Origin: a virus
Length of the DNA stretch: 12,214 nt
Reading direction: 5' to 3' (one strand)
Virus genome (UHGV): UHGV-1821312
Within the stretch, counting starts at the first letter, position 1; every line of letters starts with the position of its first letter. Below the pieces are notes generated by a model. The model was not told the origin of the DNA. It made no database searches and worked only from the letters and a program-made list of their open reading frames with translations. A program made the position numbers and the translations under genes. Of this stretch, positions 1 through 12,214 are shown piece by piece.

Positions 1-46
1 AGATCTGCGCATGTCTCGTGGGCTCGGAGATGTGTATAAGAGACAG
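1..46. other. Non-genomic library adapter at the 5' end (Nextera/Tn5-type read-2 adapter plus 19-nt mosaic end)
   Basis: Positions 13..27 are GTCTCGTGGGCTCGG and 28..46 are AGATGTGTATAAGAGACAG, the Tn5 mosaic-end sequence. The exact reverse complement is at 12175..12208. Phage sequence starts at 47. Confidence 0.9.
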
Positions 47-361
47 GTCCTGCACAAAACGGGTAAATGCCTGCTGGCTGAGAAGGCGATGTGGAATATA
101 GGTACTGCTGATAATGTCACGCTTAACACTGATCGGGGAGCTGTGGTGCACGGCGGCGCGGAAGGTACGCGCCAGTCCGTCAAAGCTGACGGGCGGCTCA
201 TACCAGCGATCCATCTGCACGCATTCCACATAGTCCAGCAGCTCGCGGCGGTCCAGTACAGGAATGGGATCACCAAAGCTGAAAGCCTCAGCCGTTGGGC
301 TGTTGCCTGGTTTTGTGTTGTGATCAACTGTTACCTGCTTGGTGTTTTTACGTTTGCTCAT
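47..361 (-). CDS. Q: Portal (capsid portal vertex) protein, N-terminal 105 codons only; the rest is lost at the adapter junction
   Basis: My translation of the minus strand from ATG (revcomp of 359..361) gives MSKRKNTKQVTVDHNTKPGNSPTAEAFSFGDPIPVLDRRELLDYVECVQMDRWYEPPVSFDGLARTFRAAVHHSSPISVKRDIISSTYIPHRLLSQQAFTRFVQD with no stop. This resembles the P2 gpQ portal N-terminus as I recall it and sits where Q belongs. GAGGAG lies 8 nt upstream of the ATG. Not in the supplied ORF track because it has no stop in the window. Confidence 0.7.
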
Positions 362-1065
362 TCTGCCAGCTCCTCGTTTGCGAGAGGCCATTCGCACATA
401 AACAGCATTTTCCAGTCCTCTGCTGATAATTCTTTTTTCATATCGTTCAGCCAGTTATCAGTAAACAACATTGCTCCTGATGCTGCTGCGTCATCAGCGG
501 TAAACACCATGCTGGTTACACTGTTGTTTTTGCTTAACTTTTTAAATTCCTGCCATGCCTCCGGGTTAGGGCTGGGAGTGGTGTAGTAGGTGGCGTGGTG
601 GCGTGCGTGCATAGAAATCCCTTTAGCCAGGGCAATCATATTTCTCGGTGATTCAGACCAGGCATACTCTGACACGTAGACATTTCCACTGAGTGCGGTG
701 GCGTGGCACTTGAGGTCGAAAAAATAAATGACCGCACCATTCGGAAGCTCCAGATGACTTTTGCCTGATTTTATTTTTCCAGTGTGCGTATAAGCTGCGG
801 CCTGGCTTAAGAATGCTGACACATAGGCTTTGATTGCCTGCGCAGATGCTGTGCTGCAGCAGAGGAAAATCTGGTTACGCCCGGTATGCAGTGCATCGTT
901 CAGGGCTTCATAGGAAAAAAAGAAATCCGCGCCTGCCTGGCGCATTTTTGTGAGTACACGGTTTCTACTCTTTGGGCCAGTGTTCCACTCATACTGGTAA
1001 GCAAAGAAAGAGCTATCCACCGGAAGTCCCGCGATAGTCATGAGGTTAGTTGGGATTGGGGGCAT
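358..1065 (-). CDS. Stand-alone terminase-ATPase-domain paralog (235 aa from ATG at 1065), function unknown
   Basis: ORF-track protein 358..1068 aligns by eye to residues ~143-378 of the adjacent terminase (FAYQYEW / FNYQRHW; TGRNQIFL identical; LPNGA; GNVYVSEYAW / GNLYLDEYFW; TTPS / STPS; MLFMCEW / LLMCEF), roughly 40% identity. It lacks the terminase N-terminal ~140 aa and the C-terminal ~210 aa. GGAG lies 8 nt upstream of the ATG. I prefer the ATG at 1063..1065 to the track's TTG at 1066..1068. Confidence 0.8.
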   Translation of the reverse strand: MPPIPTNLMTIAGLPVDSSFFAYQYEWNTGPKSRNRVLTKMRQAGADFFFSYEALNDALHTGRNQIFLCCSTASAQAIKAYVSAFLSQAAAYTHTGKIKSGKSHLELPNGAVIYFFDLKCHATALSGNVYVSEYAWSESPRNMIALAKGISMHARHHATYYTTPSPNPEAWQEFKKLSKNNSVTSMVFTADDAAASGAMLFTDNWLNDMKKELSAEDWKMLFMCEWPLANEELAE

Positions 1066-2831
1066 CAAAAAATCTCCACAATATTGCTTGTATTGGCGGA
1101 CTCGCCCTGCAGCGGTTCATTAAACAGTGCGTGCATCGTTGCCCAGGCCAGATCGGCGTGGCTGGCTTCTTCGCTGCGGCTGGCTTCATAGGTCGGGCGG
1201 TTGCCGCTGGCGGTGGTGGCGCGACGGATTGCCATAAATGACTGCGCAATGTCGGTGTGCCCGGCGTCAAACTCCAGACGGCGGTGGCTGATAATGTCGT
1301 AGGCCTTGAGTACCAGGGCGTTTTTAACATTGGGGTTGTAGACAAACTCCCGGACGGCAGGAAAGAACGCTTTCACGTTCTCATAAACCCCGTGACCGAC
1401 GCCGGTCGAGTCGATGCCGATATAGGTCACGTTGTACTGTTCGGTCAATTTTTTGATGGCGTCCGCCTGGGCGCGGAAGTCCATCCCGCGCCACTGGTGA
1501 CGCTCAAGAATGCGGAACTTACCGCCCGGCACGGCTGGCGGTGCCACCACCACGCATCCGGCGCTGTCGCCGTTCTGCGTACCTTTTGCCGGGTCATAAC
1601 CGATCCACACTTCGCGCCAGCCAAACGGGCGAAGGGCCAGTGCATGAAAGTCGGTCCAGACTTCCCAGCTGTCCACCATGCACGCCTGCAGCTCGCTGAG
1701 CGGGAACACGGACGCGAGATCGTCCACAAACTCGCACATCAGCAGGTTCTGGTATTCGCCCGGGCTGTACTCCATGCGCAACTGATCGAGGTCGAAAAGG
1801 TTACATCCGCCGCGCACTGCATCTTCCACGGTGACTATCTGGCGGTATTGCCCGTCTGCACACAGCAGGCCGGGGGCCAGATTGTTGTGTGACAGGTCAA
1901 TGTCCACCTTGTCGGCTTTGTTGCGGCCACGGTTGAACAGCGCACCGGACCAGAACGGATAAGCACTGTGGGTAAGGCTGGATGGCGTGGAAAAATAGGT
2001 TTGTCGCCATTTTTTGTGAATAGCCATACCGGAAGCCACTTTGCGCAGCTCCTGGAATTTCGGTATCCAGAAATATTCATCCAGATACAGGTTGCCGTGG
2101 TAACTCTGGGCCGTGCGGGCATTGGTGCCGAGGAAATACAGTGTGGCCCCGTTGGGAAGCACCATCGGATCGCCTTTCAGCTCCACCTCCACTTCTTTGG
2201 CGAAGTCGATGATGTACTGTTTAAAGACGTGGGCCTGTGCCTTACTGGCGGAAAGGAAAATCTGGTTACGTCCGGTCAGAAGGGCGTCAATCAGGGCTTC
2301 ACGGGCAAAGTAAAAGGTCGCGCCGATCTGGCGTGACTTCAGCAGGTTGCGGATGCGGTTGGTTTTTCCGGCTTCCCACCAGTGGCGCTGGTAGTTGAAC
2401 ATAGAGGAATGGAAGATTTCTTCCAGTTTCTCAATCTGTTCATCGGTGAAAACATTCTTTTCCGGCTGACGGCGCGGGCCTTTGTTGCGGTTGGCGACGT
2501 TAGGGTTTAAGTCGGCTTCGTTGCCGCCATTGTTAAACTTGCCGATCCGCGCGTGGCGCTCCGACTGGCGCGCCAGCAGGTCAATCTCTTTGAAATCTTT
2601 CCCTTCTTTGTGCTCCTTCATAATGAGCTGGCAGTAGCGTGCGGCGGTGGTGAGCTGCATCTGATCCAGCGGCCCATAGTCACCCCACTTGTCGCGTTTT
2701 TTCCAGCTGTGAACGGTTGCAACTTTCTCGCCCAGCATTTCAGCAATGCGGGCTACGCGGTATCCCTGAAAGTACAGCAGCATGGCCTGCCGACGGGGAT
2801 CGAGATCTGCGGGTGTCAGTGTGGTGTTCAT
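1065..2831 (-). CDS. P: Terminase ATPase (large) subunit, P2 gpP family, 588 aa
   Basis: Size and sequence are typical of P2-type terminase ATPase subunits. N-terminal region RRQAMLLYFQGYRVARIAEMLGEKVATVHSWKKRDKW, then a lambda-gpA-like deviant P-loop KSRQIGAT, a Walker-B-like LYLDE and a C-terminal domain. Divergent from the O-N-M-L operon as in P2. Confidence 0.92.
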   Translation of the reverse strand: MNTTLTPADLDPRRQAMLLYFQGYRVARIAEMLGEKVATVHSWKKRDKWGDYGPLDQMQLTTAARYCQLIMKEHKEGKDFKEIDLLARQSERHARIGKFNNGGNEADLNPNVANRNKGPRRQPEKNVFTDEQIEKLEEIFHSSMFNYQRHWWEAGKTNRIRNLLKSRQIGATFYFAREALIDALLTGRNQIFLSASKAQAHVFKQYIIDFAKEVEVELKGDPMVLPNGATLYFLGTNARTAQSYHGNLYLDEYFWIPKFQELRKVASGMAIHKKWRQTYFSTPSSLTHSAYPFWSGALFNRGRNKADKVDIDLSHNNLAPGLLCADGQYRQIVTVEDAVRGGCNLFDLDQLRMEYSPGEYQNLLMCEFVDDLASVFPLSELQACMVDSWEVWTDFHALALRPFGWREVWIGYDPAKGTQNGDSAGCVVVAPPAVPGGKFRILERHQWRGMDFRAQADAIKKLTEQYNVTYIGIDSTGVGHGVYENVKAFFPAVREFVYNPNVKNALVLKAYDIISHRRLEFDAGHTDIAQSFMAIRRATTASGNRPTYEASRSEEASHADLAWATMHALFNEPLQGESANTSNIVEIF

Positions 2832-12174: not shown

Positions 12175-12214
12175 CTGTCTCTTATACACATCTCCGAGCC
12201 CACGAGACATGCGC
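12175..12214. other. Non-genomic library adapter at the 3' end (reverse complement of the 5' adapter)
   Basis: CTGTCTCTTATACACATCT at 12175..12193, then CCGAGCCCACGAGAC. Confidence 0.9.

Follow-up and report, generated by a model that had tools for sequence, protein, structure and literature searches.

A predicted stand-alone terminase ATPase paralog, AT-rich throughout its family, is exchanged as a cassette between the terminase and portal genes of P2-like phages

The window analysed here, a 12,214-nt stretch of the virus genome UHGV-1821312, is the late region of a P2-like (Peduoviridae) phage. Between its terminase large subunit gene P and its portal gene Q lies a 235-codon open reading frame (ORF) on the minus strand (358..1065; ATG 1065..1063, TGA 360..358), hereafter the paralog, identified from the ORF and its translation. 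An earlier note on this DNA, made from the sequence alone, had taken the low guanine-plus-cytosine (GC) content of the paralog as a sign of separate acquisition. We consider it likely that the paralog is an ATPase-only duplicate of the terminase gpP, expressed as a translationally coupled late gene, exchanged as a cassette, and sharing an AT-richness that extends to its whole family.

Base composition clearly sets the paralog apart within the window. Its GC content is 48.2% over 361..1020 and 48.6–48.7% over 358..1065, the lowest of any coding sequence (CDS) in the window, and falls to 35% in its poorest 60-nt line, much as had been counted by hand (about 48%, with low stretches); the portal fragment (48..357) came out at 54.8%, against the 55% noted before. 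The figure of 62–68% given earlier for most terminase lines was an overestimate, as P has 56.7% GC overall and reaches 62% in only 17% of its 60-nt lines. None of 10,445 sliding 705-bp segments outside the paralog fell below 53.0% GC (mean 56.8, standard deviation 2.0). GC content at third codon positions (GC3) was 53.2% in the paralog, compared to 66.2% for the other genes of the window pooled (chi-square p = 7e-5) and 69.6% in the homologous ATPase part of P (p = 4e-4), while its codon-usage score against the other genes was -0.001, making it the outlier among 16 genes (0.19–0.43 in the other 15). The dip covers the paralog CDS and the first ~65 nt of Q only. Sliding-window GC, GC3 and codon usage therefore all single out the paralog, bearing out the earlier impression of a dip confined to one gene.

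The same dip was present in all 18 loci of the family that were compared (paralog versus P, mean -6.3 points in GC and -16 points in GC3; paralog also below Q; Wilcoxon p = 7.6e-6). It is similar in kind in phages of differing hosts, with paralog and P at 44% and 51% GC in a Yersinia phage, 48% and 59% in a Pantoea phage, and 49% and 57% in a Klebsiella phage, and so does not track the host. Paralogs that resemble the gpP of their own phage are AT-richer as well (44.1% vs 50.3% in L026 and 40.4% vs 47.6% in L014; L0xx are labels of the compared loci), which indicates that AT-richness arises after local duplication. Where aligned residues are identical, AT-ending codons are more frequent in the paralog than in P in 11 of 11 loci, a difference that is significant in six of them, the window not being one of the six. 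We conclude that the AT-richness is a trait of the whole family and of its evolutionary regime, and no mark of recent foreign entry. The earlier assumption that such a dip is the usual signature of horizontal acquisition does not survive this comparison, and a GC dip confined to one gene is not by itself a sign of a foreign donor.

Across ten pairs compared over exact coding sequences, the ratio of nonsynonymous to synonymous divergence (dN/dS) of the paralog was 0.16–0.48 (median ~0.22, with 0.48 in the closest pair), as opposed to 0.02–0.11 for the ATPase domain of gpP. The dN of the paralog was 2–14 times that of the gpP ATPase domain in nine of the ten pairs. The paralog is thus under purifying but relaxed selection, with constraint about five times less than that on P, and this relaxed constraint would be the likely cause of the AT-richness.

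A moron is an independently transcribed unit found between two genes that lie side by side in related phages, and it was as a moron, horizontally acquired from an AT-richer, unrelated source, that the paralog had been interpreted in the earlier note. The dip is indeed real and gene-confined, the close relatives Cartapus, 813R9, SEN8 and Fels-2 are without exactly this segment, and the paralog is like a moron in being present or absent between genes adjacent in close relatives and in its deviant composition. Unlike a moron, it lacks its own promoter and terminator, is translationally coupled to both neighbours, and derives from the very gene family of its neighbour. A consensus-based scan found no promoter-like site upstream of the paralog and no flanking terminator. 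At the P/paralog junction (1063..1077, minus strand), the paralog ATG and the P stop codon share base 1065 (TGATG), with an 8-nt spacer after GGAG (1077..1074); at the paralog/Q junction (358..375, minus strand), the paralog TGA (360..358) overlaps the Q ATG (361..359) as ATGA, again 8 nt past a purine-rich motif (GAGGAG, 375..370). The 4-bp overlap with Q is also found in L003, L005, L010–L013, and L026, and in eight out of eight enterobacterial contexts retrieved by protein look-up the paralog sits between P and Q with the same start and stop overlaps. All detectable relatives of the paralog are either ATPase domains of P2-family gpP proteins or short paralogs at the same junction, so that it was ultimately this family, and no unrelated donor, that gave rise to the gene. 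Together with a dip that recurs in every locus, including paralogs derived from their own gpP, this largely refutes an unrelated-donor moron, an origin that we now regard as very improbable.

From this anatomy, the paralog would be expressed from a late P-to-Q transcript and made by translational coupling, using what is, in phages lacking the gene, the ribosome-binding site of Q: the sequence at the P/paralog junction, GGAGATTTTTTGATG, is identical to the one preceding Q in the paralog-less phage Cartapus. A run of six T residues (GAGATTTTTTGATG, 1065..1080) stands directly before the P stop codon, with the downstream gene in the -1 frame, and a P-site slip there would fuse both proteins. A -1 frameshift fusion of P and the paralog was set aside, as the run is also found ahead of Q in paralog-less phages and is missing from L014 and L026; it probably just belongs to the coupling signal. 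Just one terminator-like hairpin occurs nearby, within the paralog CDS (928..944, minus strand), where it is followed by a T run and covers codons of the P-loop (MRQAGADFFF). The scan returned 7 such sites against 3.8 expected, and the in-CDS hairpin is probably due to chance.

Comparison with phages lacking the paralog reveals how it has moved. Against Cartapus, the window is 97% identical to the exact end of P, and similarity resumes only around Q codon 27, at 85%. The body of Q (48..292) is 99.2% identical to that of the paralog-less E. coli KCJ3K291 prophage and 92.2% identical to that of the paralog-bearing A38 prophage, whereas the paralog itself is 96.0% identical to the E. coli A38 copy; one and the same gpP protein (WP_001098431.1) is shared by A38, which has the paralog, and KCJ3K291, which lacks it. 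In E. coli prophages without the paralog, the match to the Q fragment stops at position 292 (97–99% identity), and the whole query 48–357, including 293–357, is matched only by paralog-bearing genomes. One recombination breakpoint coincides with the P stop codon and another lies close to Q codon 23. Synonymous divergence (dS) is discordant in both directions, with for example a paralog dS of 0.14 and a P dS of 0.34–0.53 between L013 and L009. These mosaic identities and discordant dS values indicate that the paralog and the first ~23 codons of Q form a cassette, which phages gain and lose when homologous recombination takes place in the conserved sequences on either side. As a result, neither P nor the body of Q shares the history of the paralog in this phage. 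The idea of a separate acquisition can be upheld in this restricted sense, as exchange among P2-like phages, since the same gpP occurs with and without the paralog and Q is mosaic; the part of it that implied a foreign source falls with the P2-family affiliation of every relative.

The Q-side recombination boundary of the cassette, as located by nucleotide matches to prophages, is formed by the hypervariable first ~23 codons of Q (293..361, minus strand). Judging from the Q N-termini of L001–L024, the portal N-terminus is hypervariable and basic over the first ~23–30 residues, before AEAFSFGDP, and differs between phages with and without the paralog. The link between Q N-terminus and paralog is most simply explained by the position of the indel boundary. 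On maturation, P2 gpQ is shortened by about 26 N-terminal residues, and this would account for the variability of the stretch.

The phylogenetic position of the paralog was assessed in neighbour-joining trees (corrected p-distances, 200 bootstraps) of 145 ATPase domains aligned to a profile: 52 from core short proteins, 55 from full-length gpP-type proteins, 8 from proteins of intermediate length, and 30 from other short proteins. The core short family separated from all full-length and intermediate proteins in 199 of 200 bootstraps, with the window protein inside the core clade. A recent local tandem duplication of the resident P in this phage might be suspected from the location of the paralog immediately downstream of P, and from the resident gpP being nominally its best full-length BLASTP match (110 vs 107 bits). 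Identity to gpP proteins is, however, a flat 32–35%, no better for the resident one than for those of Burkholderia or Shewanella phages; the window paralog was sister to the resident gpP in 0 of 200 bootstraps; and orthologues at 39–93% identity exist in other genera. The phylogeny therefore refutes a recent duplicate of the resident P for the window copy, leaving this origin with next to no probability, and the earlier note was right to argue against it.

Less diverged paralogs show that local events of this kind do take place. In L026, the paralog and the resident gpP share 68.8% identity, vs 57% between that paralog and other gpPs, and paralog and resident gpP are sisters in 171 of 200 bootstraps; for L014 the corresponding values are 63.3%, 53%, and 81 of 200. 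With both paralogs nearest to their own gpP, the P/Q junction does receive local partial duplicates of P, or undergoes conversion by P, and this probably happened more than once. We suggest that the paralog originated by such a partial tandem duplication of P into the P/Q junction, and that the window copy belongs to an old, strongly diverged lineage of these duplicates, found always in the same position in Escherichia, Salmonella, Citrobacter, Klebsiella, Pantoea, Yersinia, Serratia, and Buttiauxella.

Several points weigh against this account of composition and origin. The 18 loci sharing the GC dip are phylogenetically non-independent, and in the window itself the identical aligned residues show no significant codon shift (20 vs 17), so that the dip here comes mostly from diverged codons. 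A strict split of 66 short proteins from the rest was recovered in only 18 of 200 bootstraps, because less diverged short paralogs shift between clades, and we therefore claim monophyly for the core family only. The trees have no outgroup and fix neither the attachment of the paralogs within gpP diversity nor a single origin. Gene conversion, instead of recent duplication, could be why the L026 and L014 paralogs are so close to the gpP of their own phage.

Domain matches and a structural model identify the paralog as a predicted complete, stand-alone terminase ATPase domain. The resident gpP, a full terminase large subunit of 588 residues (1065..2831, minus strand), contains the Pfam domains Terminase_5, Terminase_6N, and Terminase_6C, and the paralog matches Terminase_6N only (PF03237, 61.8 bits vs a cut-off of 22, E 9.5e-17). 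It also matches PHROG 3746 'terminase large subunit' (E 1.4e-86), and aligns with the resident gpP at 32% identity over gpP residues 142–368 (BLASTP, E 3e-32). With the alignment beginning at gpP residue 142, the N-terminal Terminase_5 domain is absent; the C-terminal RNase H-like nuclease is also missing, as there is no Terminase_6C match and the protein ends 8–10 residues past the MCEW motif that closes the ATPase domain. A gpP insertion of ~22 residues is deleted. A profile search of PDB sequences with the paralog gave no match, and an NCBIfam search returned nothing for it. An AlphaFold (AF2) model built on an alignment of 46 family members reached a predicted local distance difference test score (pLDDT) of 81.9 and a predicted template modelling score (pTM) of 0.84, and its best Foldseek matches were the ATPase domains of T4 gp17 and P74-26 TerL (template modelling score 0.6–0.7); single-sequence AlphaFold prediction was unusable (pLDDT 37.7). 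Lacking the nuclease domain, the protein is predicted to be unable to cut DNA, and the absent Terminase_5 domain is one that, by inference, mediates small-terminase or DNA contact in gpP.

The nucleotide-binding site of the paralog is both conserved and unusual. Twenty-nine residues are invariant across the 46 family members, among them K40, R42, G45, A46, and D47 of the deviant P-loop K40-M-R-Q-A-G-A-D47 (925..948, minus strand); Q24, K40, R42, G45, E133, and T162-T-P-S are invariant or nearly so. The 29 invariant residues and the narrow length range hold in relatives as distant as about 34–36% identity. D47 (925..927) stands in place of the Mg-binding Thr of the gpP motif KSRQIGAT. This last Walker A residue is Asp in all 52 core members, as opposed to Thr or Ser in all 55 full-length proteins. 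At the Walker B position (S132-E133 in the paralog; 667..672, minus strand, with S132 at 670..672), the Asp of gpP LDE is replaced by Ser in 50 of 52 core members, while the catalytic Glu (E133) is kept in 52 of 52; all 55 full-length proteins have Asp-Glu here. The C (coupling) motif, T162-T-P-S165 (571..582, minus strand), is conserved with the STPS of gpP. The window protein thus carries D47 and S132 instead of the canonical Mg-site residues (Walker A Thr or Ser, Walker B Asp), and shows the complete family signature of K-x-R-Q-x-G-A-D, Walker B S-E, and the deleted insertion.

The Walker A Asp and the loss of the Walker B Asp go together in all 52 core members, and also beyond the core family. 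In other short proteins with 'GAD' the Walker B Asp is always gone, with Ser, Pro, Gly, or Ala instead, whereas short paralogs with a canonical Walker A mostly retain it; the ATPase-only paralogs of L014 (5001..5795) and L026 (4001..4852) have canonical Walker motifs. Neither change was ever seen in the full-length terminases examined. That the acid has moved so consistently from Walker B to Walker A suggests that the nucleotide/Mg site, though re-wired, is being maintained. With the Q motif, the P-loop Lys, Arg, and Gly, the catalytic Glu, and the C motif all kept, the paralog probably still binds nucleotide. The paralog thus shares with gpP-type terminases a homologous ATPase domain, with the fold of T4 gp17 and P74-26 TerL and the motifs just listed, but differs from them in lacking Terminase_5, the nuclease, and the ~22-residue insertion, in having Walker A Thr replaced by Asp and Walker B Asp by Ser, in evolving mostly 2–14 times faster, and in being dispensable.

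These features also bear on whether the paralog is only a decaying remnant of a duplication or of inter-phage recombination, passively carried in the operon. Its rarity and dispensability would be expected of a remnant, as would its fast evolution relative to the gpP ATPase domain, the non-canonical Walker residues, and the dN/dS of 0.48 in the closest pair. Decay is hard to reconcile with an intact frame and a constant length in relatives down to 36% identity, with 29 invariant residues that include those of the nucleotide pocket, with dN/dS well below 1 in ten of ten pairs, and with a confidently modelled fold; moreover, loss of the Walker B Asp accompanies the Walker A Asp in every case, pointing to a maintained site. 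We therefore consider passive carriage of a remnant highly unlikely, and conclude that the paralog is a real, dispensable late gene.

Relatives occur in several enterobacterial genera, and the gene is rare. A search of 5.8 billion proteins returned 56 relatives and one unrelated tail-fibre match; full-length relatives are of 225–241 residues, the rest being fragments, with identity going down to 36%. They come from Escherichia, Salmonella, Citrobacter, Klebsiella, Leclercia, Phytobacter, Pantoea, Yersinia, and Buttiauxella, to which a scan of species-representative genomes added Serratia and Atlantibacter. The window protein belongs to this short-paralog class by its length (225–241 residues in the class), its ATPase-only content, its position between P and Q, and its overlapping start and stop codons. 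The more distant short homologues of L014 (264 residues) and L026 (283 residues) also lie between P and Q. A homologue of 224 residues in L015 is located on a 2-kb contig between two unannotated genes, and that of L025 (P0177) at a contig end, after tail genes, where the context is uninformative. Only 21 of 5,426 complete E. coli genomes carry the paralog, compared to 1,228 that carry P of this type, mostly at 95–99% nucleotide identity. Similarly, a second match was found in only 7 of 237 phage records with a P2-type terminase, corresponding to about four or five distinct phages, which include MLG42, 500465-1, vB_YenM_201.16, and vB_YenM_56.17.

In databases the paralog appears as 'terminase large subunit domain-containing protein' (PGAP) and as part of PHROG 3746. 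A literature search found nothing relevant on a P2-family terminase paralog, on truncated terminases, or on phage MLG42, nor any experimental study of the function of the paralog; the family is catalogued but uncharacterised. In the record of phage 500465-1 (L001, NC_049342; 2276..4033), the annotation splits or shortens the CDSs of both the portal gene and the paralog, and both genes are intact in L009, a near-identical prophage of E. coli 503440; the split CDSs are probably the result of indel errors in the record.

As to function, we can only tentatively suggest that the paralog occupies a partner of the gpP ATPase domain, possible partners being the packaging ring, the portal, and host sensors of terminase ATPase domains. 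One possibility, which we would favour only with considerable reserve, is a subunit or regulator of the packaging motor that becomes part of the gpP ring or the portal, or caps it. It would then tune packaging in its own phage, or else act as a poison on the terminase of a competitor phage or satellite. A complete ATPase fold with retained C motif and catalytic Glu is in keeping with such a role, as is a gene encoded between, and coupled to, those of terminase and portal in every one of the eight enterobacterial contexts. On the other hand, an identical gpP works with and without the paralog, so that gpP shows no sign of co-adaptation, and most P2-like phages are without the gene.

Terminase ATPase domains are major targets of bacterial immune sensors. 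The ATPase domain by itself is enough to activate EcAvs2 and Upx, and Avs2 contacts the ATP/Mg site of the terminase (Evans et al. 2026, PMC13601566). T4 vs.8, a stand-alone terminase-ATPase-like protein whose function is not known, engages EcAvs2, and an anti-defence role was raised by the authors (PMC13601566). The paralog could accordingly be thought of as a counter-defence decoy, co-made with gpP, that binds host sensors (Avs1-3, Upx) without activating them. An arms race would fit with its fast evolution, its patchy distribution, and its being expressed together with gpP, and the altered residues of the paralog are located at the Mg site, which is contacted by Avs2. At the same time, vs.8 and Ksap1/2 activate Avs2 and do not block it, and the paralog has no anti-defence annotation by PADLOC (0 families) or otherwise, making a decoy a rather unlikely proposition. 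A broader version of these ideas, in which the paralog is a terminase-ATPase mimic with a re-wired Mg site, repeatedly evolved from gpP and intercepting either an immune sensor (Avs1-3, Upx) or a rival packaging ring, strikes us as speculative and equally doubtful. If true, this would be the first case of a terminase giving rise to a counter-defence or competition factor.

The T4 protein vs.8 is an analogous orphan. By their description (PMC13601566), vs.8 and Ksap1/Ksap2 resemble the paralog in being phage-encoded, lineage-restricted, and composed only of a terminase-ATPase-like domain. They differ in that vs.8 belongs to another terminase lineage and is reported to have conserved Walker A and B motifs, while the acid is relocated in the paralog family, and in that the paralog is encoded between terminase and portal. 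Given the immune targeting of terminase ATPase domains and the example of vs.8, the family is a tractable candidate for a packaging-linked regulator or a counter-defence protein, and phages with the same gpP, with and without the paralog, provide natural isogenic contrasts. ATPase-only offshoots of the large terminase fixed between the terminase and portal genes, fast-evolving and with a relocated Mg-binding acid, make up an uncharacterised class, the interest of which lies chiefly in the relocated Walker acid, the probable recurrent origin, and the parallel with T4 vs.8.

The known defence hotspots of P2 are located between gpA and gpQ and between integrase and att (PMC9122126, PMC13586616). 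Like the cargo of these hotspots, the paralog is a variable accessory gene of P2-like prophages, and it adjoins the gpA-gpQ hotspot; it differs in residing inside the conserved Q-L structural operon, in having no PADLOC match, and in being, as far as can be judged from the gene order, co-transcribed late. The gpA-gpQ cargo varies from relative to relative: a TIR-domain protein in L001 and L009, GAPS4-like genes in L012, SocA/Panacea in L011, an HNH endonuclease in L024, and a DUF4145 protein in L007. In L009, gpA is interrupted by IS100.

In the rest of the window, the minus strand holds P (2831..1065) and the 5' fragment of Q (361..47; ATG 361..359), and the plus strand O, N, M, L, X, lysis genes, and tail genes. 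The Q fragment (translation MSKRKNTKQ...AEAFSFGDPIPVLDRRELLDY) was recognised as portal from the annotation of homologous loci. Positions 1..46 and 12175..12214 are Illumina Nextera adapter read-through (CTGTCTCTTATACACATCTCCGAGCCCACGAGAC then ATGCGC...), and with adapter at both ends the window represents a whole short-read contig with untrimmed adapters. Q and the last gene on the plus strand are consequently cut by this artefact and not by biology.

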